From the NCBI GenBank assembly GCA_029562975.1, contig JAKQTR010000051.1, forward strand, positions 330 to 64,329: DNA of 64,000 nucleotides, written 5' to 3'. The translations under genes and the position numbers were made by a program. Position 1 is the stretch's first letter, and every line of letters starts with the position of its first letter. This stretch comes from Acidobacteriota bacterium. Its GTDB lineage: Bacteria; Acidobacteriota; Vicinamibacteria; Vicinamibacterales; JAKQTR01. Shown in pieces: positions 29,010 to 48,939 of this stretch. The notes below the pieces were generated by a model. That model saw only the letters and a list, made by a program, of their open reading frames with translations. It had not been told where the DNA came from and did no database searches.

Positions 29010-30662
<1,653 letters not shown>

Positions 30663-30671: not shown

Positions 30672-32087
30672 TCAGGCCCCGGACGCCTGGGCCCGCTCCT
30701 TGATTTTGTCCACCTCGATGCGGTGCTTCTTGACGAGGTGCCACATGCTGCGCTCGGTGATGCCCAGCATCCGCGCGCCCTGCGCCTGCACGCCGCCGGC
30801 GCGCGAGAGCGCCTCGATGACAAACGCGCGCTCGAGCTGCGTCATCTTCTCGTCGAGCGACAGCACGCCCGGCCCGTCCCACTGCTGGCTGGCCACGCCC
30901 GCCACCAGCCCGACGCCGGCCGGCCGGATGGGCGGCGGCAGGCTCGAGAGCGTCACGATCTCGCCGTCGGTGACGACGGCCGCGCGCTCGATGGCGTTCT
31001 TCAGCTCGCGGATGTTGCCCGGCCAGTCGTAGGCCATCAGGGCCGCCATCGCGTCCGACGACAGGCGCTTGATGGACCGGCCGAGGCGCTTGTTGGCCTC
31101 GGCGAGGAAGTGATCGACCAGGCCCGGGATCTCCTCGCGCCGCTCGCGCAGCGACGGCACGTGGAGCGTGATGACGTTGAGGCGGAAGTAGAGGTCGTCG
31201 CGGAAGCTGCCGTCGCGCACGCTGCGCAGCAGGTCCTTGTTCGTGCTCGCGACGATCCGCACGTCCACCCGCACCGTCGTCGTGCCGCCGACGCGCTCGA
31301 CCTCGCGGCTCTGCAGCACGCGCAGGATCTTGGCCTGCGTCGAGAGCGTCATGTCGCCGATCTCGTCGAGCAGGAGCGTGCCCCCGTCGGCCAGCTCGAA
31401 CTTGCCGGGCTTGCGCTGCTGGGCCCCGGTGAAGGCGCCGCGCTCGTAGCCGAACAGCTCCGACTCGAGCAGCGTCTCGGGGATGGCCGCGCAGTTCAGG
31501 CGCACGAACGGCCGGTGCTTCCGCGCGGAGCGCTCGTGGATCCACTCGGCCACCAGCTCCTTGCCCACGCCGCTCTCGCCCATGATGAGCACCGTCGAAT
31601 CGGTGGGCGCGGCGCGCTCGATGAGGTGCGTCACCTCGCTCATCGCCGCGCTCTTCGTGCGGGCCCAGTCGTGGCCCGGCGCGCTGGCCAGCTCCTCGCG
31701 CAGCCGCTCGATCTCGAAGTAGAGCTTCCGCTTGTCGAGGGCGCGGCGGATGACGATCTCCATCTCCTCGAGGCGGAAGGGCTTGGTGAAGTAGTCGTAG
31801 GCGCCGCGCCGGATGGCGTCGATGGCGGTGTCGCGCGTGCCGTGGGCGGTCATCATGATGATGGGCGCCCGCGGATCGATCTTCAGGATCTCGGCGACGG
31901 CGTCGAGCCCGCTCATGCCCGGCAGCCGGATGTCGAGCAGCACCAGGTCCGCCGCGTCCGACTTGAGCACCTGCAGGCCTTCCTCGGCCGTCCGGCGCAG
32001 CGTGACGGCGTAGCCCTGCCGCCGCAGCGCCTCGTTCAGGAAGAACTGCATCTGTTCGTCGTCGTCGATCACGAGCACGTGGAACAT
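30672..32087 (-). CDS. sigma-54-dependent response regulator (PilR-like NtrC family), no adjacent kinase
   Basis: VLVIDDDE...DIRLPGMSG receiver, GESGVGKE, GAFTGA, ESELFGY, a C-terminal HTH ...GARMLGITERSMWHLVKK. Start ATG 32087 inside ORF 30672..32372. Confidence 0.9.
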   Translation of the reverse strand: MFHVLVIDDDEQMQFFLNEALRRQGYAVTLRRTAEEGLQVLKSDAADLVLLDIRLPGMSGLDAVAEILKIDPRAPIIMMTAHGTRDTAIDAIRRGAYDYFTKPFRLEEMEIVIRRALDKRKLYFEIERLREELASAPGHDWARTKSAAMSEVTHLIERAAPTDSTVLIMGESGVGKELVAEWIHERSARKHRPFVRLNCAAIPETLLESELFGYERGAFTGAQQRKPGKFELADGGTLLLDEIGDMTLSTQAKILRVLQSREVERVGGTTTVRVDVRIVASTNKDLLRSVRDGSFRDDLYFRLNVITLHVPSLRERREEIPGLVDHFLAEANKRLGRSIKRLSSDAMAALMAYDWPGNIRELKNAIERAAVVTDGEIVTLSSLPPPIRPAGVGLVAGVASQQWDGPGVLSLDEKMTQLERAFVIEALSRAGGVQAQGARMLGITERSMWHLVKKHRIEVDKIKERAQASGA

Positions 32088-32139: not shown

Positions 32140-32661
32140 TCACCGCAGCGGTGCCCGCTCCACCGGGCCGTGCAGCGGAACCCGGACGCGGGACCCGTCC
32201 GCCGCCTCGAAGACCACGGCGTCCCGCTCGATGTCGGCGACGGTGTAGCCGCCGGCCGCCTCGCCGACGCCGACGATCCTGCCGTCGACCATCGCGAGGC
32301 GCCGGCCGGCAGAGAAGAGCACCGAGCGCACCGACGGCAGCGCCGCCGGCGCCCGCGGGGCCTCCGCGGCAACGACGAGGCGCGACTCGTCGCCGAAGAG
32401 GAACGGGTCGCGCGCGAACGAGACGCGCGCCGCGGGGTCGACGCGCGGCGGCGCGGGCATCGTCAGCGGGTCGGGCGGGGCGGCAGCGCCCGGGCCGGCG
32501 GCCACCGACGGCGTCACGATGAGCGGCGCCTCCGCGGCTTCGCGGGCAGCGGCGGCCCCGGACGGCGCGCGGCCGCGAAGCGCGAAGTGCCACACATTGT
32601 ACAGGACCGCCGCGGCCAGGGCGGCAAGCGCGAGGCGGAGGTGAGCCTTGCGGACCGTCAT
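32140..32661 (-). CDS. small membrane-anchored protein, PilP/GspC-like position and shape
   Basis: An N-terminal TM helix, a Pro/Ala linker and a C-terminal beta domain (...RLAMVDGRIVGVGEAAGGYTVADIERDAVVF...). Assignment rests on context and architecture only. Confidence 0.45.
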   Translation of the reverse strand: MTVRKAHLRLALAALAAAVLYNVWHFALRGRAPSGAAAAREAAEAPLIVTPSVAAGPGAAAPPDPLTMPAPPRVDPAARVSFARDPFLFGDESRLVVAAEAPRAPAALPSVRSVLFSAGRRLAMVDGRIVGVGEAAGGYTVADIERDAVVFEAADGSRVRVPLHGPVERAPLR

Positions 32662-32667
32662 GGCGGC

Positions 32668-33330
32668 CTACCCCTCCTGCTCCGGCGCGCCGCGCCGGTA
32701 GACGCGGACGACGATTTCGGCGGTCATGAGCGGCAAGCCCCGCGTCAGCCGGACGGACCTGATCTCGACAATGGTCGGCATGTCGCGGAGCGTCGACAGG
32801 AACGCGCCGATGGCGCCGAAGGTCGAGTCGAACCTCACCCGCACGGGCGTCCAGCTGACGGCGTACGGAAACAGGCCGAAGCGCGCGTCAGGGCCGTCGT
32901 CGGGCAATCCCCGGCCCTGGCCGCCCGCAAGCCGCACGGTGGCGGCCGCCGCGGCGGCCGCCCGGGGCACGCGGTCGCCGGTTTCGATGGTGAGCCCGCC
33001 GATCTGGCCGGCCGGCGCGCTGTCGAGCGCGGCTCGCGCGAGGAGCGCGGCGACGTCGGCGACCCTGTCGTCGGCGGACGCGCGCGCCTCGAATTCGGCG
33101 AGCGCCGCCTGCGGGTCGGCCGCGGCCAGGCCGCGCGAGCGATCGATCGAGGCCTGCAGCGTGCGCACGCGCTCGCCGAGCGCCGCGGCATCGGCGCGCG
33201 CCGCAAGATAGGCGTCGAGACGGGGCCGGACCGCCCACATGAACCCGGCGGCCGCCACCGCGACAATGACGAGGAACGGCAGCAGGCGCTCGAGGGCCTC
33301 GCCGGCGCGGCCGATGGGCGGGCGCGTCAC
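32668..33330 (-). CDS. PilO/GspM-like inner-membrane assembly protein
   Basis: A single TM helix, then a coiled-coil and a ferredoxin-like C-terminus (…FGAIGAFLSTLRDMPTIVEIRSVRL…). GTG start overlaps the upstream stop. Confidence 0.5.
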   Translation of the reverse strand: MTRPPIGRAGEALERLLPFLVIVAVAAAGFMWAVRPRLDAYLAARADAAALGERVRTLQASIDRSRGLAAADPQAALAEFEARASADDRVADVAALLARAALDSAPAGQIGGLTIETGDRVPRAAAAAAATVRLAGGQGRGLPDDGPDARFGLFPYAVSWTPVRVRFDSTFGAIGAFLSTLRDMPTIVEIRSVRLTRGLPLMTAEIVVRVYRRGAPEQEG

Positions 33331-35105
33331 TTCGCCACCTCGTAGCGCAGCGTGAAGTCGATCACGGTGGCCGGATGGCGCGCGGGCGCCGGGCCGCCTG
33401 AGCCGCCGCCGCGCGAAGCCGCCGCGGCTGCCGGCGCCTGGCGCTGCCGATCCCGCATCTCCTCGGCGCGGCGCTCGAGCTCGAGGCTGCCGGCCTGGCG
33501 GCGCAGCGGAACGCGGTAGAGCCGGCCGTCGCGCGCCACCTCAATGTAGGCCGGCCCGCTCGGCGCGGCGCGCGGCGCCTCGACTTCCCGGGCCTCCGCC
33601 TCGGCGGATCCGGGAAGCGGATCTGGCGCCGTCCCGGGCGGCGGTTCGGGGATCGCGTCCGGCGTCCGGACGCGCAGCGACGGCGGCTCGGCCGGCTGCC
33701 CGAGCAGCGGCGACTCGCCCAGGGCCTTGAGGAACGCGTTGAAGACCGCCTGCGCCGAGGCGGCGTCCGGGCCTTCGACTTGCCCCTCCGCCGTTATCTC
33801 CCACGCGCCGGGACGCGGGTCGGCCGCGAGCGAGGTGAGCGCCAGCGGCGCGGGAGCGGCCTGGCTGAAGGCAGCCAGCACCTGCGCGAAGCGCGGGCCC
33901 TGCGACGCAAAGGCCTCGAGCGCCGCCGAGCGGGCCGATGCCGCAAGGGCCTGGCGCCGCGCCTCGTCCTGCCGCTGCATCTCCGGTTCGAGCGCGGCCG
34001 CGGCGCGCCGGAGGCGCTCGACTTCAGCGTTCACGCCGCGGGTGAGGCCGCTCAACGCTCCCCATCCCGCCGCTACGAGGAGCAGGCCGGCCACACACGC
34101 GCCGGCGGCACGGCGGGCGGTCCTGGCCGCCGGAAACCCGGGCCTCCGGTCCGACGACAGCAGGCGCGCGGCGGGCGCGGGCTCAGCGGCGAGCGCCAGG
34201 GCGGTTTGCCACGCGGCCAGGCGCGAGCGGAAGCGATCCGACGGCTCGGGCAGCGAGGAATCGTCGAGCTGGTCCGCCACGTCGAGCGTCTCGACGTCGA
34301 TCCCGAGCTCCTGCACGAGCGGCCCGGTGAGCGCGCGCGCGTCGGTCACGTCGCCGCACACGAAGACGCGGCTGACCTCGATTCCGGCGTGCTGCTTCAC
34401 GTAGACGAACGATCGGCGGAGCTCCGACGCGAGGCGGAGGGCGAGAGCGGCCGCCGCGGGCGCAGCGCCCCGGGAATCGGCGTCGGCATTCTCGCCGCCC
34501 CAGGGCAGCTCCCGCGCAAGCAGCACGACGCGGCCGCGGACCACGCTGAGGGCCGTCGCTGTCGCGTTCACCGAGAGCACGGCCGCCGCCGCCCCCGGAG
34601 GCAGCGCGGCGCGCTGGCGGACCAGGGAGGCGTGGGCAAGCGCCGGCGTCACGGCGGACTCGATCTCGAAGCCGGCGTCGACAAGCGGCTGCAGGCGCGA
34701 GCGAAGCTCCTCGGCTCCGGCCGCCGCGTAGCCGACCTCGCGCCGGCCCTGCTCGTCGATCTCGCCGATGACGACCGCGTCGGCGAGCGGCCCGGCTGGC
34801 GCGGCGAACCCCGTCGGCGCCTTCGCGCCCGCCTCGCGCCGGGCGACGACCTCAAGATCGCGAGCGTCCGCGGGCGGCAGGCGCAGCGCCTGGTGGGCCG
34901 CATTGAGGCCCCAGACGGCGACGGCAGCCTTCCGCTCGATGCCCTTCACGGCCGAGCGCAGCTCCGCCGCCAGGCCGGCCGCGCCGGCAGGCGAGTACAT
35001 CACCTCGTGAAACGCCACGACCCGCGGCGGCTTCTTCGGCTTCGTCCTGATCGTGACGACCCGGCAGGCGTGCGGAAGCAGTTCTATCCCTGTACGGTTC
35101 GCCAT
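33327..35105 (-). CDS. PilM-PilN (MshI/GspL-like) fusion protein with a long disordered C-terminal extension
   Basis: An N-terminal actin-like PilM-type region (GIELLPHACRVV...VLSVNATATALSVVRG...VFVCGD), a central TM helix (AGACVAGLLLVAAGWGAL), a coiled-coil and a periplasmic domain. Confidence 0.6.
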   Translation of the reverse strand: MANRTGIELLPHACRVVTIRTKPKKPPRVVAFHEVMYSPAGAAGLAAELRSAVKGIERKAAVAVWGLNAAHQALRLPPADARDLEVVARREAGAKAPTGFAAPAGPLADAVVIGEIDEQGRREVGYAAAGAEELRSRLQPLVDAGFEIESAVTPALAHASLVRQRAALPPGAAAAVLSVNATATALSVVRGRVVLLARELPWGGENADADSRGAAPAAAALALRLASELRRSFVYVKQHAGIEVSRVFVCGDVTDARALTGPLVQELGIDVETLDVADQLDDSSLPEPSDRFRSRLAAWQTALALAAEPAPAARLLSSDRRPGFPAARTARRAAGACVAGLLLVAAGWGALSGLTRGVNAEVERLRRAAAALEPEMQRQDEARRQALAASARSAALEAFASQGPRFAQVLAAFSQAAPAPLALTSLAADPRPGAWEITAEGQVEGPDAASAQAVFNAFLKALGESPLLGQPAEPPSLRVRTPDAIPEPPPGTAPDPLPGSAEAEAREVEAPRAAPSGPAYIEVARDGRLYRVPLRRQAGSLELERRAEEMRDRQRQAPAAAAASRGGGSGGPAPARHPATVIDFTLRYEVAK

Positions 35106-35284: not shown

Positions 35285-35932
35285 CTACTGGATGCGGGTG
35301 CCGATGTCGTCGCCGCCCGGACGGGCGGAGGCCAGGATGGAGGCGGCGAACGGCGTTTCGATGATGCCGTTCGGCCCGGCCGACAGGACCCAGACGGCCG
35401 ACTTGGGCTGCCCGGCGGCCGTCACGGCGCCAGGCGAGAGGTCAATCGCCCCGATGTTGACGATGTAGCGGCGGCCCCAGGGATCGGCCGCGAGCTCGGA
35501 GGAGAAGTACGGGCCGTTCCAGCCAAACGGCGTCATCGGCGTCCGCATGGGGTAGCCGGGCGCGTTCGTGACCAGCTGGTCCGTCAGGCTGCCGCTTCGG
35601 CCGGTGGTCCAGGCGCTCGGCGCGTCCTCGAACGGCATGCTGCCCTGGCTGACGAGGACGTCCAGCCGGTTCGCTCCGCCGGGAGCCTGGCCGGGCGCGG
35701 CCGACGGCGCGGCCCTCCACGCCGGGAAGTAGCCCGTGTCGCGGAAGAACTGGTAGATGCCGTTTGCGATGGTGTGGCAGTCGTTGCGCGCGCGGGCCAT
35801 GCGCGCGTCGGTGATGGAGTTCGCGATGGACGGCGTCAGCACGAGCGCGAGCGTCACGATCACGGCGAGCACCACCGCGACCTCGATGAGCGTGAAGCCC
35901 ACTGCGCCCCGCCGCCGTGCCGTCGCGGGCAT
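35285..35932 (-). CDS. GspG-like pseudopilin
   Basis: GFTLIEVAVVLAVIVTLALVL prepilin motif and the GspG-type DPWGRRY motif. Start ATG 35932 inside artefactual ORF 35285..36571. Confidence 0.75.
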   Translation of the reverse strand: MPATARRRGAVGFTLIEVAVVLAVIVTLALVLTPSIANSITDARMARARNDCHTIANGIYQFFRDTGYFPAWRAAPSAAPGQAPGGANRLDVLVSQGSMPFEDAPSAWTTGRSGSLTDQLVTNAPGYPMRTPMTPFGWNGPYFSSELAADPWGRRYIVNIGAIDLSPGAVTAAGQPKSAVWVLSAGPNGIIETPFAASILASARPGGDDIGTRIQ

Positions 35933-35937: not shown

Positions 35938-36720
35938 CTACCTGGTGCCTCCCTGGATGACGAAAATCCAGTCGTCGCCCTCGCGGCAGGTGCCGAACCG
36001 CGTCGTGGACGGGCACCCGCCGAAGTATGTCTCGAACAGCTTGTTGGGGCCCGAGGAGATGCAGAACACGTCGCGGTTCCACGCCGCGCCCGCGTGGCCC
36101 TCGCCCGGCGCGAACGCATCGGTGGCCGCCGTCAGGAAGACGGAGTTGACCATGTAGGCGTTGCCCCAGGGGTCGGGGCCGATCGGCCCCGACAAGTACG
36201 GGCCGCGCCAGCCGATGCCGTGCTGCGGGCCGACGGGGATGCCGTTCGGGTACAGCACGCTGGGACCCGGGTACGGCACGACGAGGTCGTTGCGCACCAG
36301 GTGCTGCTCCATGCTGCCGTCCTGGGCCGTGATGGCCGCGTCCCAGTTCAGCGGGCCGTTCACGTTCGCCCCGGCCAGCGTGTAGTTCGTGGCGGCGGGA
36401 GAGAGCGGCGCCAGCAGGCCCGCCGTCGCCCCGTCGCTCCACAGCAGGTCCACCCGGTTGTCCACCGTGCAGCCGTCGGTGCCCACCAGCCGGAAGCAGG
36501 GCGGCACGTCGCGCATCATGCGGACGACCGACACGCCGATCGCCTCGCAGTCCTCCTTGACCTTCACCCACTGCGCGTCCCGGACGTAGTCCACGATGGA
36601 CGGGGCCAGGACGCCGGTGAGCAGCATCAGCACGAGGAGGATGATCGTGACCTCGACGAGCGAGAGCCCCGCACGCGACCTCAGTTTTCGCACGCCCGTG
36701 GCCTCCGGAAAACCCTCCAT
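35938..36720 (-). CDS. Cys-containing GspG-like pseudopilin, paralog 1
   Basis: RAGLSLVEVTIILLVLMLLTGVLAPSI..., WRGPYLSGPIGPDPWGNAYMVNSVF, FCISSGPN. Start ATG 36720 (MEGFPE...) is consistent with the sigma-54 promoter at 36755-36769. Confidence 0.7.
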   Translation of the reverse strand: MEGFPEATGVRKLRSRAGLSLVEVTIILLVLMLLTGVLAPSIVDYVRDAQWVKVKEDCEAIGVSVVRMMRDVPPCFRLVGTDGCTVDNRVDLLWSDGATAGLLAPLSPAATNYTLAGANVNGPLNWDAAITAQDGSMEQHLVRNDLVVPYPGPSVLYPNGIPVGPQHGIGWRGPYLSGPIGPDPWGNAYMVNSVFLTAATDAFAPGEGHAGAAWNRDVFCISSGPNKLFETYFGGCPSTTRFGTCREGDDWIFVIQGGTR

Positions 36721-36754: not shown

Positions 36755-36769
36755 GCAACCGCCGTGCCT
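36755..36769 (-). promoter_or_regulatory. sigma-54 promoter AGGCACG-GCGG-TTGCT
   Basis: Minus strand reads GAAGGCACGGCGGTTGCTGCG. The -12 element lies about 35 nt upstream of ATG 36720. Confidence 0.65.
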
Positions 36770-37151
36770 TCGGCCGCCACCGGGGCTGTGCGGCCCTAGA
36801 CCCGGGAATTGCGCTTATTTATGACACTCGCCGGCTGGGAACTCCACAGGAAAGCGCGCCTCCCGCACGCAATTCCTACCATTCGCGTAGCTCGAACCAG
36901 GCGCGCCCGGGGCGACCCATCGGGCCGGACCGCTCTCGTCTCGGTGCGCGTGCTTCATTCAACTGCTTGTCGTGACGCGAGTTGCGGCCGTGAAGCCCGG
37001 CACGGCCGCACGGGGCCATCACTTCGTGTAGGGACCTGACCGCCCTTCCTACAAATAACGTCGCCCCGCTCCCGTCCGTCAGGGCTTCGGGGAGCGTCCC
37101 CGGGGCCCGCTCGGGCGGCAGCGCGGCTGCCTCGGCGGCGCCGCGGCGCCG

Positions 37152-37880
37152 CTACGGCCGCCCCCGCCGCGTGGCGGCGCGCAGGGCGCCCAGCAGGCCG
37201 GCCGCGACGAGCATGAAGCTGCCGGACTCAGGAACGGGCAGCGGCCCGGCGTAGTCCTGGCCGTATCCGTTTTGCGGATCCCTGATGTCGTACCAGAGGG
37301 CCTCGGCGGTGTTCGCGCCGAGACTCGAGAAGTACAGGTTCGAGTAGCTCAGAATCAGCGGGTGGTTCTCCGCGGCCCACAGCAGTTTCAGGCTTCCGCT
37401 GGTGAGGCTGTAGCTGCCGAACGGCTCGAAGAGCACCTCCCAGATGGCGAGCTGCAGGGCGGCGGCGCGGGCGTTCTGGTCGGCGCTGTCGGCGTTTGCG
37501 CGCAGCCACGCGTCGCCGGCGTAGGTGTTGATCAGCCACGCGATGCGGCCGCCCGCGTTGGGCTGGACGCCGGCGGCGGGATTGCCCAGGTCCGGCAACT
37601 CGCTGAGAGCGCGTTCGCTCATGTCCTGGATCGTCGTCCGCGTCCGCGTCGGGTCGATGCAGTACGCGATGAAGTCGTCGGCCGCGTCGGGTGAGCCCAT
37701 GTCGAGCAGGAGCTGCCCGGCGAACGTTCTGAAGTAGTGAGGGGCCATGACTTCCAGGCCGGCCACGCCGAGCCCGTAGCCCTTCAGGTAGACCGGGTCA
37801 GCCTGCGCGGGCACCGCGCCGAAAACAATCAGCGACAACGTGCCGGCCAACGCCGCCGCCTTGATGGTCCTGCTCATCAT
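37152..37880 (-). CDS. secreted thioester-domain (TED/TQXA)-like protein with a C-terminal PEP-CTERM-type sorting signal
   Basis: Signal peptide MMSRTIKAAALAGTLSLIVFGAVPAQA. FIAYCID (Cys74) and AALQLAIWEV (Gln143) match the TED motifs. The C-terminus VPESGSFMLVAAGLLGALRAATRRGRP resembles PEP-CTERM. Start ATG 37880 inside artefactual ORF 37152..38942. Confidence 0.65.
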   Translation of the reverse strand: MMSRTIKAAALAGTLSLIVFGAVPAQADPVYLKGYGLGVAGLEVMAPHYFRTFAGQLLLDMGSPDAADDFIAYCIDPTRTRTTIQDMSERALSELPDLGNPAAGVQPNAGGRIAWLINTYAGDAWLRANADSADQNARAAALQLAIWEVLFEPFGSYSLTSGSLKLLWAAENHPLILSYSNLYFSSLGANTAEALWYDIRDPQNGYGQDYAGPLPVPESGSFMLVAAGLLGALRAATRRGRP

Positions 37881-37925: not shown

Positions 37926-37940
37926 GCAACGAGCGTGCCC
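37926..37940 (-). promoter_or_regulatory. sigma-54 promoter GGGCACG-CTCG-TTGCT
   Basis: Minus strand reads GTGGGCACGCTCGTTGCTCAC. The -12 element lies about 46 nt upstream of ATG 37880. Confidence 0.65.
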
Positions 37941-38329: not shown

Positions 38330-39082
38330 TCAGCGCGTATCGCCTGAGATGAGGAAGACGATGTCGTCGCCGCGGCGCAGCGTGCCGTGCGAGGCGTTGC
38401 CGCCGAACGAGGTCTCGAACAGGCCGTTCGGCCCGGCCGAGATGCAGAAGACGTCGTTCGGCCAGCCGCCGCTTCGCTGGCCCGGGCCCGTCCCCGGCTG
38501 CGCGTCGCGCGCGACGGAGAGGAACACCGAGTTGACCAGGTAGCGGTGCCCCCAGGGGTCGGGGCCGATGGGCGGCGACAGATACGCGCCGCGCCAGCCC
38601 GTGCCGGGCTGCAGCGCCGAGAGCGATCCCCACGCCTCGGGCGTCGGGTAGGCGGGGCCTCCGCCGTTGTGCACGAACTGGCGCTCCATCGAGTCGCCGC
38701 GGCTGTCGTCGGCGTGCCAGTTCAGTTCCGCGGCGGTGTTCCCGCTTCCGGCAAACGGCGCCGCCGCGTCGCCCGCCACGTCCGCCGGGGTGACATCCGG
38801 CCCGGCGCTGTAGAGCAGATCCACGCGGTTGGCCCTGGTGCAGGCGCCCGAGCCGTCGAACTTCAGGCACGGGCCGACGTCTCGCGCGAGCCGCACGACC
38901 GACAGGCCGATGGCCTCGCAGTCCTCCTTCGCCTTGACCCACTGGGCGTCGCGGACGAAGTCCAGGATGGACGGCGCGAGCACCCCCGTGAGCAGCATGA
39001 GGACGAGGAGCATGATGGTGACTTCGACGAGGGACAGGCCCTTGTCGGGGCCGGCCCCTCGCCGTGTCACTCTGCCCGCCAC
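38330..39082 (-). CDS. Cys-containing GspG-like pseudopilin, paralog 2
   Basis: KGLSLVEVTIMLLVLMLLTGVLAPSILDFVRDAQWVKAKEDCEAIG..., WRGAYLSPPIGPDPWGHRYLVNSVF, FCISAGPNG, and a C-terminal RRGDDIVFLISGDTR. GTG start. Confidence 0.7.
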   Translation of the reverse strand: MAGRVTRRGAGPDKGLSLVEVTIMLLVLMLLTGVLAPSILDFVRDAQWVKAKEDCEAIGLSVVRLARDVGPCLKFDGSGACTRANRVDLLYSAGPDVTPADVAGDAAAPFAGSGNTAAELNWHADDSRGDSMERQFVHNGGGPAYPTPEAWGSLSALQPGTGWRGAYLSPPIGPDPWGHRYLVNSVFLSVARDAQPGTGPGQRSGGWPNDVFCISAGPNGLFETSFGGNASHGTLRRGDDIVFLISGDTR

Positions 39083-39116: not shown

Positions 39117-39878
39117 TCAGCGCGTGTCGCCGGAAATCACGTAGATGAAGTCGTCGCCGCGGCGGTAGACGCCGCCGAAGGCGTTGCCCGCGAAGGCGGT
39201 TTCGTAGCGCCCGTTCGGGCCGGCGGAGATGCAGAAGGTGTCGTGGGACCACCCGCTCGCGGGCGGGACGTAGGGCACCCTCAGGCTCGAGGTGCCTGCG
39301 CCTGCCGCATCGGCGGCCACCGCGAGGAAGACGGAGTTGACCAGGTAGCGGTGGCCCCACGGGTCGGGCCCGATAGGCGGCGAGAGGTAGGCGCCGCGCC
39401 AGCCGAGGCCGAAGGCCGGGCCGGACGTGCCGTAGCTCCCCAGGTCGCTCGGCGTCGGGTACATCGGGCCCGTGCCGTTGTCCACGAACTGGTGCTCCAT
39501 CGAGTCGCCGCGGCTGTCGTCGCGGTCCCAGTTGAGGTCGGTGGCCGTGGCGCCGCCGCCGTGGAAGTCCCAGACCGCGTCGCCGGCCAGGTCCGCGCTC
39601 GTCACGTCCGGGCCGTCGCTGTAGAGGATGTCGACGCGGTTCGCCTTCGTGCACGGCGCCGTGCCGTCGAACTTGAGGCACGGGCCGACGTCGCGCGCGA
39701 GGCGCGCCACGCTGACGCCGATGGCCTCGCAGTCCTCCTTCACCTTCACCCACTGCGCGTCTCGCACGTAGTCCATGATCGACGGCGCCAGCACGCCGGT
39801 CAGGAGCATCAGGACGAGCAGCATGATGGTCACTTCCACCAGTGACAGGCCGCGTGCGTTCGAAGTCCCGTGTCGCAT
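39117..39878 (-). CDS. Cys-containing GspG-like pseudopilin, paralog 3
   Basis: RGLSLVEVTIMLLVLMLLTGVLAPSIMDYVRDAQWVKVKEDCEAIG..., WRGAYLSPPIGPDPWGHRYLVNSVF, and a C-terminal RRGDDFIYVISGDTR. Start ATG 39878 inside ORF 39117..40064. Confidence 0.7.
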   Translation of the reverse strand: MRHGTSNARGLSLVEVTIMLLVLMLLTGVLAPSIMDYVRDAQWVKVKEDCEAIGVSVARLARDVGPCLKFDGTAPCTKANRVDILYSDGPDVTSADLAGDAVWDFHGGGATATDLNWDRDDSRGDSMEHQFVDNGTGPMYPTPSDLGSYGTSGPAFGLGWRGAYLSPPIGPDPWGHRYLVNSVFLAVAADAAGAGTSSLRVPYVPPASGWSHDTFCISAGPNGRYETAFAGNAFGGVYRRGDDFIYVISGDTR

Positions 39879-39993
39879 GTGATCCTCGTCCCGCACCTCG
39901 GCCGGCGGGGCCTGCCGCCCGTTCCCGGGCCACCCGCCGTGTCGTTCCCGTGCGGGTACGCTCCGGTACGGAGGTGCGACGAAGGACGCTCGA

Positions 39994-40008
39994 GCAAGGC
40001 ACGTGCCC
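39994..40008 (-). promoter_or_regulatory. sigma-54 promoter GGGCACG-TGCC-TTGCT
   Basis: Minus strand reads CGGGGCACGTGCCTTGCTCG. About 115 nt upstream of ATG 39878. Confidence 0.65.
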
Positions 40009-40221: not shown

Positions 40222-41358
40222 CTACCTGAGCCCCGTCCGGAGCGCCTCGACGCGCGCCCGGACGTCCACCGACAGCCCCGCGCTCTCCGGCCCGGCGTTG
40301 GCGAGGAACTGCTCGTAGTGGTCGATGGCGCGCTGCAGCTCGCCGCGCTCTTCGTAGATCAGGGCCAGGTTGTAGTGGGCCTGCGCGTAGCGGCCGTTGA
40401 GGGCGAGCACGCGCTGGAGCGATTCGCGGGCTTCCTCGACGCGGCCCGCGGCCTTCAGCGCGAGCGAGAGGTTCGTCAGCGCCTCGACGTTCTTCGGGTC
40501 GCGCGCGACCACCGACCGGAACTGCACGACGGCCGCGTCGGTCCTGCCGGAGCGCATGAGGGCGACGCCGAGGTTGTTCTGGGCCTTCTCGTAGCGCGGG
40601 TCGATGAAAGTCGCGCGCTGGAACTCGCCGATGGCCTCCTCGAGCAGCCCCTTGCTCTGGTAGAGCACGCCGAGGTTGTTGTGGGCCTCGGCATTCAGCT
40701 CGTCGGCCGCGAGGACGGCGCGGTAGTGAATGAGGGCGTTCTCGAAGTCGCCGACGCGCTGGTAGTAGAGCGCCCGCTTGAAGTGCTCCGTCTCGGCCGC
40801 CGGGGCCCGCGAGATGGCGGGCGCGCCCGGGCCCGCGCCGGGCGCCGGCGGCGGGAACGCGGCCGGCGCGGCGCCCTCGACGCGCGGCGCCCGCGCTCCC
40901 GCCTTCCCGCCCGGGGGCTTCGCGGCGCCTCCGGCGGGCGGGCTCGATCTCTCTTCAACCGGCCTGGCCGGGGGCTCGGCCGACACCGGCGGCGCCTCCG
41001 GCACGGCGGCCGGCTCGGCTCTCTGCGGCGGCCCGGCGGCCGGCCGCGCCGGCAGCGGTGGCGGCGCAGCCCGTGTCGCGGCCGCCGGGGCCTTGCGAAA
41101 GGACGTGAACGGCCCGGACGTGATCAGGCCGCTCATCGCCGCCGCCTGCCAGACCAGCGCCGCGGTCGCCGCGACCAGCACGATCACGAGCCCCAGGCGC
41201 CTGCGCGCCAGCGAATGGTCCTCCTGCCTCTCCCGCTCGGCCTGGAACGCGAGCGAGGCCGGCACGGCGTCCGGCCCGGCCGCGCGGCCGGGCGGCTGGT
41301 CTGGGCTGGCCGGAGGCGCTGGCTTGTGGTGGCGCAGCGCGTCGAGCATGCGGCTCAC
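40222..41358 (-). CDS. membrane-anchored TPR-repeat protein (MshN-like position)
   Basis: An N-terminal TM helix, a long Pro/Ala linker, then about 5 TPR units (...AEAHNNLGVLYQSKGLLEEAIGEFQRA...). It directly follows the ExeA-like ATPase gene. Confidence 0.7.
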   Translation of the reverse strand: MSRMLDALRHHKPAPPASPDQPPGRAAGPDAVPASLAFQAERERQEDHSLARRRLGLVIVLVAATAALVWQAAAMSGLITSGPFTSFRKAPAAATRAAPPPLPARPAAGPPQRAEPAAVPEAPPVSAEPPARPVEERSSPPAGGAAKPPGGKAGARAPRVEGAAPAAFPPPAPGAGPGAPAISRAPAAETEHFKRALYYQRVGDFENALIHYRAVLAADELNAEAHNNLGVLYQSKGLLEEAIGEFQRATFIDPRYEKAQNNLGVALMRSGRTDAAVVQFRSVVARDPKNVEALTNLSLALKAAGRVEEARESLQRVLALNGRYAQAHYNLALIYEERGELQRAIDHYEQFLANAGPESAGLSVDVRARVEALRTGLR

Positions 41359-41361: not shown

Positions 41362-42285
41362 TCACCTGCAGGACAGAGACGACGGGTGCGAGCGGGCGGC
41401 ATCCGTGACGGCGGCGCCGCGCCGCAGCCACGCGAACCGCGCTCGCCGGATCGGCCTCAGGTCGAGCGTCTCGGCGGCGCGCTCGATGAGATCGTGCGTC
41501 ACCTTGCTCGCGCGGGCCGAGTACGCGCCGAGCAGCGCGCGGTCGCAGACGAGGTTGACCAGGCGCGGGATGCCGCCGCTGTAGTGGTGCACCTGCTGCA
41601 GCGCCTTCGGCGTGAACGCGACGGCGGTCGACCCGCCCGCCACCTGGATGCGGTGCGCGATGTAGGCCACCATCTCGTCGCGCGTCAGCGGCTTCAGCTC
41701 GTACCGGATCGACACGCGCTGGTCCAGCTGCCGCAGCCCGGGCGACCGCAGCAGCGGCTGCAGGTTCAGCTGCCCCACCATGATGATCTGCAGCAGCTTC
41801 TCCTTGTCCGTCTCGAGGTTCGACAGGATCCGCAGCTGCTCGAGCACCTGGAGCGGCAGGTTCTGCGCTTCGTCGATGATGAGCACCGCCCCGGCGTGGA
41901 TCGGCAAGAGGCCCAGCAGGAAGTCGTAGAGCGTGTCGATCAGCTCCTGCTTGCTCACGCCCTGCAGGCGGCCCGTCTTCATCTCTTCCCGCGACACCAC
42001 GCCGAAGTCCTGCAGGATGAGCTTGAGCAGGTCCTCTTCCGACAGGAACGGGTTCAGCACCAGCGCGGAGAACGTGCGGCGGTCGATCTGCTCGAGCAGC
42101 GCGCGGCACAGCGTGGTCTTCCCCGTTCCGATGTCCCCGGTGACGACGACGAAGCCCTCGCGCCGCCGGATGGCGTACTGCAGCAGCTCGAAGGCGTTCG
42201 CGTGCGACTCGCTGCGGTACAGGTATTTCGGGTCCGGAGTCAGGCTGAACGGCTTCTCCGTGAACCCGAAGTAGTCCTCATACAT
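41362..42285 (-). CDS. ExeA/GspA/MshM-family AAA ATPase
   Basis: MYEDYFGFTEKPFSLTPDPKYLY..., GDIGTGKTTLCRAL Walker A, LIIDEAQNL Walker B. No peptidoglycan-binding C-terminal domain. Confidence 0.8.
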   Translation of the reverse strand: MYEDYFGFTEKPFSLTPDPKYLYRSESHANAFELLQYAIRRREGFVVVTGDIGTGKTTLCRALLEQIDRRTFSALVLNPFLSEEDLLKLILQDFGVVSREEMKTGRLQGVSKQELIDTLYDFLLGLLPIHAGAVLIIDEAQNLPLQVLEQLRILSNLETDKEKLLQIIMVGQLNLQPLLRSPGLRQLDQRVSIRYELKPLTRDEMVAYIAHRIQVAGGSTAVAFTPKALQQVHHYSGGIPRLVNLVCDRALLGAYSARASKVTHDLIERAAETLDLRPIRRARFAWLRRGAAVTDAARSHPSSLSCR

Positions 42286-42324: not shown

Positions 42325-43977
42325 TCACTTGCGCACCGGGGCGCGCTGCGCCTCGTACAGCCGCTGCTGGTCCGCCGCCGCCGCCGCGGCCATCTCGCCG
42401 GGGGTCATCACCGTCGGCGTCAGCAGGATGACCAGGTCCGTCTTCCGCTTCGTCCGCTCGTCGCGGCGGAACAGGCCGCCGACGACGGGCACGTCGCCGA
42501 GGACGGGCACCTTGCTCTTTTCGACCGTTGTCCGGTCCTGCATCAGGCCCGCGATGACGATCGTCTCGCCCTGGTGGACGCGGACGAGGGTGTCTGTCTC
42601 GCGCACGCTCACGACGGGCACCTGGTCGCCCAGGCGCGAGGTGGCCGTGCCCGTGCGCTCGGTGATGCTCGGCATGATGCTCAGGTTGATGATGCCGTCG
42701 GCCGCGATCTGCGGCGTCACGCTCAGCACCACGCCCTCGGTGATCGTCTGCGGCGTCACCACGGTCTGCAGGATCTGCCCCGTCGACGCGTCCACCTGCG
42801 ACGTCGTCACGAAGAACACGTCCTGCGTGCCGACGCGCATGACGGCCGGCTCGTTGTTCATGGCCGTCACCCACGGGCTCGCCATCACGTTCACGCGGCC
42901 CTGGCTCGCGAAGGCGTCCAGCAGCCCGGCGAAGTCCTTGATGTTCAGGCCGAGGGTGAAGGCGCCCGAGCCGCTCGCGGGCGCGAGGTTCTGCGTCAGC
43001 GTGGCCGCCTTGTCCGCGCGCTTGAGCACGAGCGACCAGTCGATGCCGGCCGAGTAGCCTTCCGACAGCTCCACTTCGAGGATCTTCGCGACGATGCGGA
43101 CCTGGCGGAGGGCTCGGTTCTCGTAGGCCTCGATGTAGACCGCGATCTTGTCCAGCCGGCTGGGAACGTCGGTGACCTGCAGCAGGCCCGCCTTGCGGTC
43201 GAGGTTCATCTTGCCGGCGTCCGACAGGAGCGTCTGGACGCCCGCCTGGATTTCCTCGAAGACGTCGCCCGAGTCCGTCCCCGACACCGAGGCCTGGCTG
43301 CCGCCGATCCCGCCCGTGCCCGCGTAATAGCCGCCGCCGTAGCCGGCCGCGCCGACGCCGCCCGCGTAGATGGCGCCGGCGCCGCCGTAGGCGCCCAGGC
43401 CCGCGTTGCCCGCCAGGCCGCCGGCGAGCCCCGAGCCGCGCGTCCCCGACCGGCGCGTCGCGACGTAGTTGATGTTGAAGAGGCGCGTCTCGGCCCGCTC
43501 GCGCCCGACGCGCACGACGTTGTCGGTGATGACGGCGTGCAGGCCGTGCGGCTCGAGGATGGTGTCGAGGGCCTGCCGCAGCGTGACGTTCTTGAGTTCG
43601 CCGGTGAAGGTGCCCTGCGCGTCCGGATCGACGACGACGCTGAGGTCCGTGTCGCGGACGAGCAGCAGGAGGAGGTCGCGGATCGGGACCGGCTCGGCGA
43701 AGCTCAGCGAGAGCGTCTGGGCCATCGCGTCCGACCGGCGGCCCTCCTCGATCTGGCTCACCGCCAGCGGGGGCAGCCCGGGGCCCTGGGGATTCAGGGC
43801 CGACGCCGGCGGAAACGAGCCTGTCGGGGCCGGGGCGGTTGGAAACGGGCTCTGCGCCGGAGCGAGGCCCGGCGCCGCCAGGACGGCCGCCGCGACCAGC
43901 AGCACCGGGGTCAGATCCGCATATTTGTAGATCTGACCCCGATTGCGGCCGGGACGGGCGTGTGCACTGCGTGTCAT
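42325..43977 (-). CDS. gspD: secretin (GspD/PilQ/MshL family)
   Basis: The C-terminal secretin core ...VSVTPQI..DG.I.L.I.PSI......VP.V..RE..T.V.V..GETIVIAGL....T..K.KVP.LGD.P..G.LFR..........LVI.LTP. Start ATG 43977 inside ORF 42325..44094; GTG 43905 is an alternative. Confidence 0.85.
   Translation of the reverse strand: MTRSAHARPGRNRGQIYKYADLTPVLLVAAAVLAAPGLAPAQSPFPTAPAPTGSFPPASALNPQGPGLPPLAVSQIEEGRRSDAMAQTLSLSFAEPVPIRDLLLLLVRDTDLSVVVDPDAQGTFTGELKNVTLRQALDTILEPHGLHAVITDNVVRVGRERAETRLFNINYVATRRSGTRGSGLAGGLAGNAGLGAYGGAGAIYAGGVGAAGYGGGYYAGTGGIGGSQASVSGTDSGDVFEEIQAGVQTLLSDAGKMNLDRKAGLLQVTDVPSRLDKIAVYIEAYENRALRQVRIVAKILEVELSEGYSAGIDWSLVLKRADKAATLTQNLAPASGSGAFTLGLNIKDFAGLLDAFASQGRVNVMASPWVTAMNNEPAVMRVGTQDVFFVTTSQVDASTGQILQTVVTPQTITEGVVLSVTPQIAADGIINLSIMPSITERTGTATSRLGDQVPVVSVRETDTLVRVHQGETIVIAGLMQDRTTVEKSKVPVLGDVPVVGGLFRRDERTKRKTDLVILLTPTVMTPGEMAAAAAADQQRLYEAQRAPVRK
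43907..43940. repeat. GGGGTCAGATC-family hairpin (11-bp stem, 12-nt A/T-rich loop) inside the predicted secretin signal-peptide region
   Basis: GGGGTCAGATC cgcatatttgta GATCTGACCCC followed by GATTGCGG, as in the 26924-27000 element. Confidence 0.75.
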
Positions 43978-44182
43978 GTCGTACCCCGGGCGGCCGGCGG
44001 AGACGGATCTCCGCGGAGGCTGCTCGCCTTCTCGTCGGGTTTCTCGGTGTATCTCTTTTGGGACGTTAGGGCTGCGGGCGCTTCTGCGCGCCATTGCACA
44101 GTCGGGGTCTCGCCCCGACTTGCGGCACGCGGCCGGGCTTCTGGAGCCGCAAATCGAGGCCTGGCACGATCCCTGGCTCCAC

Positions 44183-45691
44183 TCAGGCGCGCGAGCGGGT
44201 GCGGAGGAGGTGCAGCAGCCGCGCCGCGAGCGGCAGGAGCGGCAGCACGCCCAGGTTGACGATGTACATCCAGGCGCGGCGGCGTTCGGTCAGCGCGACC
44301 CGCCGGTTCTGGCGCTCCTCGACGCTGACGATTCGCGCCTCGTCCACGCCCGCGAGCCACGACACGATCCGGACCGCCAGTTCGCGGTTGGCCGACCAGC
44401 CGATCAGCCCGTTCGCCAGGAAGTCCGAGTCGCCGGTCACGACCAGGCGCGGCTCGGGCAGCGCGGCGTCGCGCGCGCCTCGGCCGATGCTCGTCGCCAC
44501 GGCCAGCGCGAACGGCCCTCGCCGGTCGCGGCCGGCCTGGAACAAGGTGGACTGGCTCTCGAGATCGGCGCGCTCGAACGCGCTGTCGGCCGTCGAGACG
44601 AGCGCAATGGGCCGCCCGATCTCCGTCGGCGCCACGGCCAGCGGCGCCGCGCGGCCGAAGATCGCCCGCTGGTCGAGGCCGCGCGTGACGGGATGGTCGT
44701 GATAGGCGAACGACACCGGGTTCTCCGGCCCGGCGCCGACCGCGCGCCCGGCTCCGCTCGTCTCGATGATGACGCCCTGTCCGGCGACGATCCCGAGCCG
44801 CTGCAGGAACCCGGCCACGCCGGGATCAACGGGCGGATCCAGCGCCAGGAGCACGCGCCCTCCCCTTGCCAGATGCGCGCTCACCCGCTCGAGCGCGCCG
44901 GCCGGGAATGCTCGCGGCACGCCCGGGACCACGAGGGCCGCACACCCCTGCGCAGCGTCGCCTTCCAGCAGGCTGACGCGCCTGGGCGCGAAGTTCGATG
45001 CGGCGAGCACCGACGCCAGCGTCGACAGGCCCTGCGGCCCGGTGTCCTCCAGGCCGTGCTCACCGTCTCCGCTCGCGAAGCACACGGCCGGCTCGGCCGG
45101 GCTGGTCACCTGCAGGATGGCCGTCGCCAGCGCCGGCTCGGTCACGCGCTCGACCTTCCTGGAGCGCCGCGGCGACGACACGACGACCGTCCCGGCCCTG
45201 GTGACGCCGTGCTCCCGCGCGGCCTGCGGCGACGCGTCGAGATCGGCGAACCGGACGGCCAGCCGCGGGCTTCTCGACGCAAACGACTCGAGGAGCCGCC
45301 CAGCGCCGGGGTCTCGCGTGCGGCCCCACTGCGTGAAGACGACGTCCTCGCCGAGGTCCTCGAGGATGCGGACCGTCTCCGCCGCCAGCGTATGGCGTCC
45401 GGCCTCGGTCCAGTCGAAGGCCGGCGCGCGCCTTGCCACGATCACGTTGACGAGGACGAGCACCGCGGCCAGCAGCAGCGTGGACAGCGCCGCGTTCAGC
45501 GCGAACACGCCGCGCGGGTCGCCGAGCCACTCGCGCACGTCGCGCCACGACGCGGCCACGCCGACGGCGAGGGCGGCGGCGCCGCCCGCCGCCAACACCG
45601 CTGCGGGCGTGGTCCAGCGCAGCGCGAGCGCGGCCGACACCACGCCGGCCGCCACCATCAGCGCGCCGGGCAGGAAGGCGAGCTTCCTCAC
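44183..45691 (-). CDS. GldG-like ABC-transporter auxiliary protein
   Basis: N- and C-terminal TM anchors flank a large periplasmic domain. It follows ABC-2 permease and ATPase genes with a GTGA overlap (GTG 45691). Confidence 0.6.
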   Translation of the reverse strand: MRKLAFLPGALMVAAGVVSAALALRWTTPAAVLAAGGAAALAVGVAASWRDVREWLGDPRGVFALNAALSTLLLAAVLVLVNVIVARRAPAFDWTEAGRHTLAAETVRILEDLGEDVVFTQWGRTRDPGAGRLLESFASRSPRLAVRFADLDASPQAAREHGVTRAGTVVVSSPRRSRKVERVTEPALATAILQVTSPAEPAVCFASGDGEHGLEDTGPQGLSTLASVLAASNFAPRRVSLLEGDAAQGCAALVVPGVPRAFPAGALERVSAHLARGGRVLLALDPPVDPGVAGFLQRLGIVAGQGVIIETSGAGRAVGAGPENPVSFAYHDHPVTRGLDQRAIFGRAAPLAVAPTEIGRPIALVSTADSAFERADLESQSTLFQAGRDRRGPFALAVATSIGRGARDAALPEPRLVVTGDSDFLANGLIGWSANRELAVRIVSWLAGVDEARIVSVEERQNRRVALTERRRAWMYIVNLGVLPLLPLAARLLHLLRTRSRA

Positions 45692-46476
45692 GTCCGCTCG
45701 AACCTCAGGGCCTCGACCGCGCGCTGGGCGAGGAAGAGCGCCATCACGATCCACGACGCGAAGTAGACCAGGTCGGCCACCGACACCACGCCCCGCGTCG
45801 AGTCGATCTGGCGGGCGTAGAACGAGAACGCGCCGAGCATCCGCGCCCACACCGAACCGGACCCGCCGCCGGTCGTGTCGATGAACTGCAGCGTGACGAC
45901 AATCCCGTACGTGCCGATGGCGGACACGAGCACGTGCTCGCAGAGCGACGACACGAACAGGCCCAGGGCGATCTGCGCCCCGCCAACGAGCAGCAGGCCC
46001 ATGAGGCCGCTCGCGATCACGCCGGCCTCCCAGTGGTTGCCGGCTCCCATGAACGCGAACATCGGGACGAGCGGCGCCAGCATCAGCGCCAGCAGGGCGA
46101 TCGCGCCCAGGAACTTGCCCGCGACGATTTCCGACGCCCGCACGGGCGACGTCATCAGCAGCTCGATCGTCCCCTTCCGCCTCTCATCCGTCATCAGCCC
46201 CATCGTCAGCAGCGGGACCGCGAGCATGAGCAGGAACGCCTCGTTCTGGAAGAACTGCGCGAGGACGGTTGTCGGCACGTCGAGCTGGTAGTCCGAGCGG
46301 CCCAGGCGCTGGATCTGGCTGTCGGCCAGCGCGGCCTGGCGGATGTAGTGGACGAGCATGTTCGAGAAGAACAAGCCCGACACGAACGTGAAGACCGCCA
46401 TCACCGCGGCTGCGATCGGCGAGACGAAGTACGACTCGAGTTCCCGACGGGCGATGGCGAGCGCATGCCGCATCAC
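45688..46476 (-). CDS. ABC-2 family transporter permease (GldF-like)
   Basis: Six hydrophobic segments and the ...TDERRKGTIELLMTSPV... motif typical of ABC-2 permeases. Confidence 0.75.
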   Translation of the reverse strand: MMRHALAIARRELESYFVSPIAAAVMAVFTFVSGLFFSNMLVHYIRQAALADSQIQRLGRSDYQLDVPTTVLAQFFQNEAFLLMLAVPLLTMGLMTDERRKGTIELLMTSPVRASEIVAGKFLGAIALLALMLAPLVPMFAFMGAGNHWEAGVIASGLMGLLLVGGAQIALGLFVSSLCEHVLVSAIGTYGIVVTLQFIDTTGGGSGSVWARMLGAFSFYARQIDSTRGVVSVADLVYFASWIVMALFLAQRAVEALRFERT

Positions 46477-47567: not shown

Positions 47568-47590
47568 GACACAGGAGTATCGGCGGCACA

Positions 47591-47667
47591 GGGGCAAGGG
47601 ACAAGGGGCAAGGGGCAAGGCACGGACGGGGTTCGGGATGCGGGACTCGGGACTCGGGACTCGGGGG
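47591..47667. repeat. two-module tandem array: GGGGCAAGG/GGGACAAGG units, then GGGACTC x3
   Basis: ggggcaagggacaaggggcaaggggcaagg (47591-47620) and gggactcgggactcgggactcggggg (47642-47667). Confidence 0.85.
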
Positions 47668-48800: not shown

Positions 48801-48840
48801 GCGCGCGCCCCGCCGCGCGCGGTCCGGCCCGCGCGACGCC

Positions 48841-48893: not shown

Positions 48894-48939
48894 GGGGGTG
48901 CTGCCGCGAGGGCCGCCCGTCCGGGCCGGGGGCTCCGCC

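Follow-up and report, generated by a model that had tools for sequence, protein, structure and literature searches.

What is a gene for a putative covalent adhesin doing among the genes of a pilus? The question is raised by a stretch of 64,000 nucleotides (64 kb; hereafter the window) from an Acidobacteriota bacterium, on the minus strand of which a cluster of pilin-like genes encloses a gene for a protein of 242 amino acids (aa; 37152..37880, stop codon at 37152-37154). An earlier note on this DNA had described the product as an adhesin with a thioester domain (TED), in which Cys74 would bond with Gln143, and had suggested that a pilus delivers it. Computational analysis leads us to the view, which we hold to be probable, that this is a small Sec-exported single-domain TED protein with an exosortase-type (PEP-CTERM/VPDSG-like) signal, working by the mechanism outlined below, and that its gene is an optional, co-expressed passenger of the pilus cluster.

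The open reading frame (ORF) at 37152-37880 on the minus strand translates as the earlier note had given it, and the elements listed there (FIAYCID, AALQLAIWEV, the VPAQA/DP end of the signal peptide, and the VPESGS-helix-RRGR tail) are all present in the translation. GC content at third codon positions (GC3) is 0.92, which is in the range of real genes of this window of 72% GC. An identical protein (P0001) is found in NCBI, where a metagenome-assembled genome (MAG) of Acidobacteriota carries it under the automatic annotation 'thioester domain-containing protein [Vicinamibacterales bacterium]'. That the ORF is spurious, a product of the high GC content, is ruled out by the GC3 value together with the identical protein, which has many homologs.

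The protein matches the Pfam TED model (PF08341) with 27.0 bits (E 6.2e-6), where the gathering score is 22, and residues 71-150 align with profile positions 1-70 of 102. An exhaustive HMMER search yielded an alignment of 139 sequences whose members share ~30% identity, and from this alignment an AlphaFold2 (AF2) model was computed with a pLDDT of 89.6 and a pTM of 0.83; it replaced an earlier model from 18 sequences, which was unusable (pLDDT 48.6). When the model was compared with the PDB by Foldseek, the top three hits were all TEDs, namely 5A0N (prob 1.00, TM 0.46/0.51) and chains D and E of 5DCQ (prob 0.99 and 0.97), and every non-TED hit had a prob of 0.08 or less. The TED fold, a beta subdomain with a three-helix core, is thus recovered by structure comparison, with TM-scores that are moderate. 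Taken together, the Pfam match, the model and the Foldseek results delimit a compact, class-I-like thioester domain at residues ~27-214 (37239..37802, minus strand, as are all elements of the gene given below).

All three published TED motifs are found, in the secondary-structure contexts expected of them in the AF2 model. The first, [YFL]C-Phi-zeta (Phi being hydrophobic and zeta hydrophilic), lies in a beta strand and carries the thioester Cys (PMC4450167). Here it reads Y73-C74-I75-D76 at the end of predicted strand 70-74, with Cys74 (codon TGC, 37659..37661) as the predicted thioester cysteine. The second motif, TQxxPhiW, belongs to the central helix, where its Gln and Trp hydrogen-bond the Cys backbone and are dispensable for bond formation (PMC4450167). 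Its counterpart is L142-Q143-L-A-I-W147 (37440..37457; Gln143 codon CAG, 37452-37454) within helix 132-151, and the first residue of this motif (L-Q143-L-A-I-W147-E-V-L) is Leu where the canonical residue is Thr. Both codons lie where the earlier note had placed them. The third, of the pattern Phi-Q-zeta-Phi-Phi, is fitted by Gln208 in Y-G-Q-D-Y-A (codon CAG, 37257..37259), 134 residues past Cys74 and abutting strand 210-212.

These residues are conserved across the family: Cys74 is found in 138 of the 139 members, Gln143 in 135, Trp147 and Gln208 in all 139, and Asp209 in 121. Cys74 is the sole Cys of the mature protein in 100/139 members and is therefore not a disulfide partner. A Cys protease or transglutaminase was considered and rejected, since the 139-sequence alignment holds no conserved His, and chance co-occurrence of the motifs is rejected by the family conservation, the Pfam E-value and the fold match. 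Judged by the Pfam match, the predicted fold and the conservation of the motifs, the 242-aa protein is TED-like; this part of the earlier note holds.

Closest to it among known systems are the class-I TEDs of Gram-positive surface adhesins (SfbI, FbaB and Cpa, with solved structures from S. pneumoniae, 5A0N, and S. equi FNE, 5DCQ; PF08341). They share with the window protein the three motifs in beta, helix and beta contexts, an N-terminal signal peptide, and the placement of the TED at the N-terminus of the mature protein. There are also differences: the host here is a diderm acidobacterium, and the protein has no LPXTG/sortase signal, no isopeptide or ester stalk domains and no fibronectin-binding repeats, but consists of a bare domain of ~190 aa with the exosortase signal directly after it. 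The central-helix motif has L-Q for the canonical T-Q, and the thioester of the window protein is a predicted one.

Which glutamine would form the bond? The earlier note had chosen Gln143 and had overlooked a third invariant residue, Gln208. The structure prediction for which it had called returned a confident TED-like fold, but one in which Gln143 falls in the central helix, within a motif that is dispensable in characterized TEDs. Because the central-helix Gln is not required in known TEDs and Gln208 is invariant, Gln208 is predicted to replace Gln143 as the bonding residue, and the predicted thioester pair becomes Cys74-Gln208. The assignment of Gln208 is based on its pattern and its invariance and does not come from an alignment with a solved TED. 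Fold and key residues are those of Gram-positive TEDs, and from them we infer the Cys74-Gln208 bond.

A comparator whose thioester is supported by mutation is the class-II TED adhesin TIE of plasmid pLS20 (Bacillus subtilis), which is needed for conjugation. Its Cys motif, Y-C-I-D, is identical to that of the window protein, and its Gln sits in Y-Q-R-L-M, comparable to the Y-G-Q-D-Y-A described above. TIE differs in its length of 778 aa, in a slipknot beta-sandwich insertion and in its CnaB stalk domains, and the alignment between the two proteins is limited to the Cys motif. The same Cys-Gln thioester chemistry serves covalent capture in complement C3/C4 and in alpha-2-macroglobulin, including the bacterial ones of Gram-negatives; these, however, have an unrelated fold, with Cys and Gln next to each other in a single CGEQ motif, and no similarity between them and the window protein was found.

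The two ends of the protein tell how it is probably sorted. A Sec-type signal peptide, which ends in AQA/D, occupies residues 1-26 (37803..37880); it was read from the sequence and is modeled by AF2 as a helix at residues 3-20. At the other end, residues 216-242 (37155..37235) are laid out as V-P-E-S-G-S / FMLVAAGLLGAL / R..RRGRP, that is, a short motif, a hydrophobic transmembrane helix and a basic cluster (R-R-G-R-P). A signal peptide together with a C-terminal P-E-x motif, a hydrophobic helix and an Arg cluster is the layout of the substrates of the PEP-CTERM/exosortase (EpsH, XrtA) system, and the complete architecture is found here. On its own, the stretch of the last 36 residues aligns with the Pfam PEP-CTERM model over all its positions (1-24 of 24) at 17.5 bits, against a cutoff of 20.7. 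The score stays below the threshold because the motif reads P-E-S where 135 of the 139 relatives have Pro as the third residue; PEP itself is read in 125 of the 139.

Orthologs and more distant relatives pass where the window protein does not. The ortholog of 77% identity (P0002) scores 22.0 bits on PEP-CTERM, the one of 59% identity (P0009) scores 31.1 bits on VPDSG-CTERM against a cutoff of 25, and across the sampled family 111/139 members match Pfam PEP-CTERM and 64/139 match Pfam TED (E<=0.01). The Sec signal and the exosortase-type tail proposed in the earlier note are thus both supported, and the search with PEP-CTERM models that it had suggested gave a mixed outcome: the window protein itself falls short, and its orthologs match one model or the other. 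From its sequence, the tail is of the exosortase type. One orthologous group carries two kinds of tails, VPDSG-CTERM (…V-P-D-S-G-S…) in P0009/P0010 and PEP-CTERM (…P-E-P-G-S…) in P0002-P0008. The V-P-E-S-G-S of the window protein, as a sequence, is intermediate between these two signal classes, and such tail switching may reflect a change in the subtype of the cognate exosortase.

A canonical XrtA-type exosortase locus lies in a sister MAG, which has a 57%-identical ortholog of the thioester gene in the same pilus cluster (L011) and the exosortase locus on another contig (L015). There, an exosortase/EpsI fusion scores 205 on the exosortase model TIGR02602 (cutoff 105.55) and 113.6 on the EpsI model TIGR02914 (cutoff 42.8), and it is also above the cutoff of TIGR04178. 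It is accompanied by PrsT (TIGR02917, 322.7 against 312.2) and by an XrtA-system glycosyltransferase (TIGR03013, 455 against 393.35). Immediately upstream of the fusion, inside this XrtA/PrsT/exopolysaccharide (EPS) locus, a 33%-identical thioester/PEP-CTERM paralog is encoded (L015:9821-12447), so that the family is represented at least twice in this genome, in the pilus cluster and again in the exosortase locus. The window organism resembles the known carriers of PEP-CTERM systems in having an outer membrane and in belonging to a soil or sediment lineage. Besides its V-P-E-S-G tail, two things set the window gene apart from the system as described: this copy lies in a pilus cluster and not in an EPS locus, and PEP-CTERM proteins have been described with few recognizable domains, whereas the passenger here is a recognizable reactive adhesin domain.

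We propose the following mechanism. Transcription would start from the gene's own sigma-54 promoter or proceed jointly with the upstream pilin genes. Once the signal peptide is removed, the C-terminal helix would hold the protein in the inner membrane, as the order of its parts suggests. The domain would then fold in the manner of class-I TEDs and form the putative Cys74-Gln208 thioester by itself, with the L-Q143-L-A-I-W147 helix packed against the Cys. By analogy with the published PEP-CTERM model, an exosortase would cut at V-P-E-S-G and pass the protein toward the cell surface or the exopolysaccharide layer. Outside the cell, as in SfbI and Cpa, the strained thioester may react with a nucleophile of the target, for example a primary amine, and would thereby tie the cell or its matrix covalently to matrix polymers, a substrate or another cell. 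Strains that have kept the gene, a minority, probably make the protein alongside the fiber as a second attachment device.

Several observations weigh against this account. The fold match is moderate, with TM-scores of 0.42-0.51, a Foldseek E-value of 3e-3 and ~10-12% identity to solved TEDs. Sequence and profile searches of PDB chains, whether begun from the single protein, from 18 sequences or from 139, return no TED, and the link to solved structures is therefore made by structure comparison alone. The NCBIfam TQXA model, to which the earlier note had also pointed, has no match, nor does the whole protein match any NCBIfam family at E<=10. An hhalign comparison with the pLS20 TED aligns the Y-C-I-D motif and nothing else, and so does not confirm the choice of Gln208. 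As for sorting, the whole protein matches neither the Pfam nor the NCBIfam PEP-CTERM models, its tail reads PES rather than PEP and stays below the Pfam cutoff, and Pfam, NCBIfam and phmmer searches find no exosortase in the 64-kb window. The final location of the protein is a conjecture.

Some of these observations would fit an ordinary exosortase-sorted matrix protein, in which a TED-like fold has no thioester and the conserved Cys and Gln have some other role, be it in folding, in metal or redox chemistry or in binding a ligand non-covalently. The silence of the TQXA model, a sequence similarity to proven TEDs that is limited to short motifs, and the moderate fold match all favor it. We nevertheless regard it as unlikely. 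The polar residues that are invariant or nearly so across 139 sequences at ~30% identity are exactly the TED set of Cys74, Gln143, Trp147 and Gln208; a lone, unpaired Cys in an exported protein has been kept in 138/139 members; and the motifs stand in the same secondary-structure contexts as in published TEDs.

The window gene is a member of a very large, uncharacterized diderm family of exosortase-sorted thioester domains. When 1.84 billion cluster representatives were searched with a profile, 7,055 were matched at E<=1e-3 and 1,904 at E<=1e-10, each count being of clusters at 50% identity, and nearly all the matches are proteins of 200-270 residues that align over their whole length. The genomes in which a member with the exact ALQLAIWE motif is encoded span Acidobacteriota, Armatimonadota, Planctomycetota, Desulfobacterota, Verrucomicrobiota, Pseudomonadota and Myxococcota, and among their cultured carriers are Tautonia sociabilis and Dethiosulfatarculus sandiegensis. 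The domain also occurs within a larger protein: a 3,220-aa giant adhesin from a Pirellulaceae MAG (P0135, MCL4202707.1) has the same thioester-like domain at residues ~1320-1458, along with 14 SdrD_B repeats and further repeats of the SpaA, DUF11 and RTX kinds, a TIE-like stalk architecture in a diderm planctomycete.

In the literature up to 2026, TEDs are described as a feature of Gram-positive Firmicutes and Actinobacteria (among others, PMC4450167). No paper in the searchable literature contains 'thioester domain' together with 'PEP-CTERM', and one contains 'thioester domain' together with 'exosortase', as an incidental co-mention. The earlier note had called the combination undescribed. 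That is so of TED plus PEP-CTERM in the searchable literature, but the combination is common, as the ~7,055 clusters and the PEP-CTERM matches of 111/139 sampled members indicate, and nearly all of its occurrences are away from pilus loci. TED and PEP-CTERM were each known before; what is new here is a minimal TED in diderm bacteria that is fused directly to an exosortase anchor.

Does the protein then belong to the pilus beside which it is encoded? The prepilin motif G-[FL]-[ST]-L-x-E, or class III signal peptide, is absent from the 242-aa protein, whereas five neighboring genes encode one. Genome loci were retrieved with an 18-sequence alignment and restricted to those with the exact sequence ALQLAIWE, and among them a pilus cluster stands beside the family gene in close orthologs only (L001/L011, L002 and L010); within 10 kb of the ~35 relatives in other genomes there is no gene for a pilin, a secretin or GspE. 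The pilin paralogs in turn retrieved 80 metagenomic copies of the cluster. Where the interval between pilin B and pilin C is fully covered, the thioester gene is absent from 27 of 28 copies and a gap of 120-600 bp is found in its place; it is present in L088, between the pilins, and in L051 and L117. One cluster without the gene has, in its 600-bp gap, a stretch that tblastn aligns weakly with the last third of the thioester protein (L097:1163-1357, 32% over 72 aa, E 0.028), and this may be a decayed remnant. Orthologs of the thioester protein have diverged to 47-77% identity and those of pilin A to 68-88%, roughly in step with their clusters. This pattern of sequences suggests an old insertion followed by repeated loss. 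The thioester gene is an optional passenger of this cluster, which some Vicinamibacterales carry, and neither a fiber subunit nor a required part of it.

Expression offers a further link between the gene and its neighbors. Exact matches to the sigma-54 core GGCAC-N5-TTGC number three in the 64 kb, where 0.54 are expected; every one is a minus-strand site within the pilin cluster, and they lie a short way upstream of pilin A, of the thioester gene and of pilin C. The -24/-12 core of the thioester gene, GGCACGCTCGTTGC (37926..37939, minus strand), was found by the exact-match scan 45 nucleotides (nt) upstream of the ATG, within an intergenic gap of 449 nt. It is kept upstream of the ortholog in L002, where cores occupy the same three positions. 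In L001 the thioester gene starts 25 nt past pilin B, and at this spacing the two are probably co-transcribed. The shared type of core and the spacing in L001 make it likely that the thioester gene is co-expressed with the pilins. A MAFFT alignment of the three promoter regions was uninformative on shared upstream activator sites.

A promoter of this kind is a general property of PEP-CTERM genes, which typically form a single-gene unit with a long upstream intergenic region and a sigma-54 site of their own (Haft et al. 2006, PMC1569441). The window gene has this layout, a typical and not an obligatory feature. Among 40 family loci an exact core lies within 350 nt upstream of the gene in 7, where ~0.28 are expected (Poisson P ~2e-8), and outside pilus clusters the figures are 6 of 37 against ~0.26 (P ~3e-7). 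The non-pilus loci concerned are L007, L012, L020, L024, L027 and L032, in several of which the core is the sole such site in ~20 kb. The own sigma-54 promoter claimed in the earlier note thus exists as a promoter-like site, but it is not specific to the pilus.

Delivery of the adhesin by the pilus, as the earlier note had it, is made unlikely by these comparisons: the signal peptide is of the Sec and not the prepilin type, the gene is lacking in 27/28 cluster copies, and ~35 relatives lie away from any pilus. We hold it to be quite improbable that the protein is a functional part of the pilus, placed at the tip of the GspG-like fiber, attached along it or exported through the secretin, to give a covalently adhesive diderm pilus. 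What favors this idea is that orthologous clusters of as little as 47-57% identity retain the position between pilin paralogs, that same-type sigma-54 cores precede the pilin units and the thioester gene, with apparent co-transcription with two pilin genes in L001, and that the AAA ATPase of the cluster resembles the XrtA/PEP-CTERM-associated ATPase (TIGR03015), scoring 279 bits where its counterpart in a real XrtA locus scores 230. However, a protein with a Sec signal and no prepilin N-terminus cannot be polymerized as a pilin, the pilus evidently works without the thioester protein in the metagenomic copies that lack the gene, the relatives elsewhere have no pilus machinery near them, and the promoter and single-gene layout are generic for PEP-CTERM genes and enriched at non-pilus members.

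A narrower variant, in which the protein is coupled to the MSHA/T2SS-like fiber by reaction with a lysine of one of the 250-aa pilins, or leaves through the secretin with the aid of the XrtA-type AAA ATPase, appears to us very unlikely. Were it true, the result would be a covalently adhesive diderm pilus, and a type IV filament machine would be the long-sought outer-membrane route for PEP-CTERM proteins. That the protein is soluble cargo of a T2SS-like machine, released through the secretin with its C-terminal tail as a degenerate relic, is the least probable reading of all and can be given little credence: the PES tail below the Pfam cutoff, the lack of an exosortase in the 64-kb window and the T2SS-type parts of the cluster (GspE, GspF, GspG and secretin) would suit it, but all three parts of the tail are retained and its alignment spans the whole PEP-CTERM model, canonical PEP or VPDSG tails persist in orthologs of 47-77% identity and so show the tail to be under selection, the sister genome has an exosortase locus, and most cluster copies have no such cargo gene. 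We therefore return to the exosortase-sorted TED protein whose link with the pilus is one of co-location and probably of co-expression only; a specific pilus connection is not supported as functional coupling.

The cluster itself was correctly described in the earlier note as one of GspG-like pseudopilin genes, since the neighbors are pilin-like, with class III signals and a Pfam T2SSG match. Its order on the minus strand, in the direction of transcription, is secretin, AAA ATPase, TPR protein, pilins A and B, the thioester gene, pilin C, GspG, a PilM-like protein, two small assembly proteins, a sigma-54 response regulator, an MshE-like ATPase, GspF and a fifth pilin. The secretin (42325-44094) is MshL-like (Pfam Secretin and STN; NCBIfam MshL 210.6 against a cutoff of 250.2), and the AAA ATPase (41362-42285) is ExeA/MshM-like (Pfam AAA_22; TIGR03015 279 bits against a cutoff of 324.5). 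The ATPase of the XrtA locus in the sister genome (L015:17174-18142), with its 230 bits, is also below 324.5, and the model named 'XrtA/PEP-CTERM system-associated ATPase' therefore does not separate pilus and XrtA roles in this lineage. The TPR protein (40222-41358; Pfam TPR) is next in order.

Five pilin-like genes with class III signal peptides belong to the cluster. Paralog A (39117..39880; GspG-like, ~250 aa), recognized by its class III signal G/LSLVE, a DPWG motif and the paralog alignment, has a sigma-54 core at 39994-40007. Paralog B (38330..39082) follows 35 nt past it, and paralog C (35938..36720) has its core at 36755-36768; both were identified by their class III signal and the paralog alignment. 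Downstream of the thioester gene lies a weak terminator-like hairpin (36854..36870, minus strand), which carries low weight, as the consensus scan found 4 in the region against 1.7 expected. The first 60 residues of paralogs A, B and C are nearly identical, G|LSLVEVTIMLLVLMLLTGVLAPSI.DYVRDAQWVKVKEDCEAIG, and the three have in common a GPDPWG motif like that of GspG, a C-terminal R-x-G-D-D...G-x-T-R and four Cys that are conserved; no Pfam family matches them, and they have 141 metagenomic relatives. In distant variants of the cluster (L083, L093, L102, L111, L114 and L115) the large pilin paralogs are interleaved with extra GspG-type genes (pilA-GspG-pilB-pilA-GspG…), which makes the pilin region a hotspot of duplication and rearrangement. 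The GspG-type pseudopilin (35285..35905) scores 24.6 bits against 21 on Pfam T2SSG, and its N-terminus matches NCBIfam GspG below the cutoff.

Beyond it, three assembly-platform genes (32140..35105), encoding a 592-aa protein with a weak PilM match and proteins of 220 and 173 aa, are kept in order in L001, L002 and the metagenomic loci. They are followed by the sigma-54-dependent response regulator (30672..32060), whose matches to NCBIfam models of the AtoC, NtrC and PrsR kind are all below equivalog cutoffs and whose orthologs have Pfam Response_reg and Sigma54_activat domains. The MshE-like ATPase (29010-30662) has GspE/PilB matches and an MshE-type c-di-GMP-binding N-terminus (NF053729, 54.3 bits against 38); this sequence feature suggests that c-di-GMP controls fiber assembly in addition to the transcriptional control by sigma-54. 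The GspF platform protein (27772-28998; Pfam T2SSF) and the fifth pilin (27011-27772; N_methyl) complete the cluster. These components match those of MSHA-type/T2SS-like clusters (MshL, MshM/ExeA, the TPR protein MshN, MshE, MshG and GspG-like pilins). The window cluster differs from them in having its own sigma-54 activator and three 250-aa pilins that belong to no Pfam family, and the thioester gene is homologous to no pilus component.

On the secretin side, the flank at 44183-50886 (minus strand) is syntenic with L001:1-4320 and encodes ABC_transp_aux, an ABC-2 permease, an ABC ATPase, DUF5518 and myo-inositol-1-phosphate synthase. Synteny with a sister genome at 57% identity indicates that the whole region is stably inherited. 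Elsewhere in the window, a polysaccharide-biosynthesis-like stretch (7907-15924, plus strand) encodes a UbiA-family prenyltransferase, three GT4 glycosyltransferases and three proteins of no family (328, 369 and 413 aa). The neighboring stretch (16401-20766, minus strand) encodes another sigma-54 response regulator and a PDZ/GAF/PAS histidine kinase of 980 aa. The possibility that the two sigma-54 regulators and the GAF/PAS kinase are PrsR and PrsK was considered and rejected, since they are generic, AtoC/AtoS-like and below the PrsR/PrsK cutoffs.

In the literature, internal-thioester adhesin domains are treated as a Gram-positive specialty tied to sortase and to host tissues, whereas the family of the window protein belongs to diderms of soil, sediment and freshwater. 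PEP-CTERM/exosortase substrates mostly have no recognizable functions, and the thioester family would supply a passenger with a defined and testable chemistry. At ~190 aa, the compact domain might also attract protein engineers in search of a small reactive tag. Should the thioester form, then bacteria that build biofilms and flocs in the environment, and not pathogens alone, would have covalent "harpoon" attachment as a general tool.

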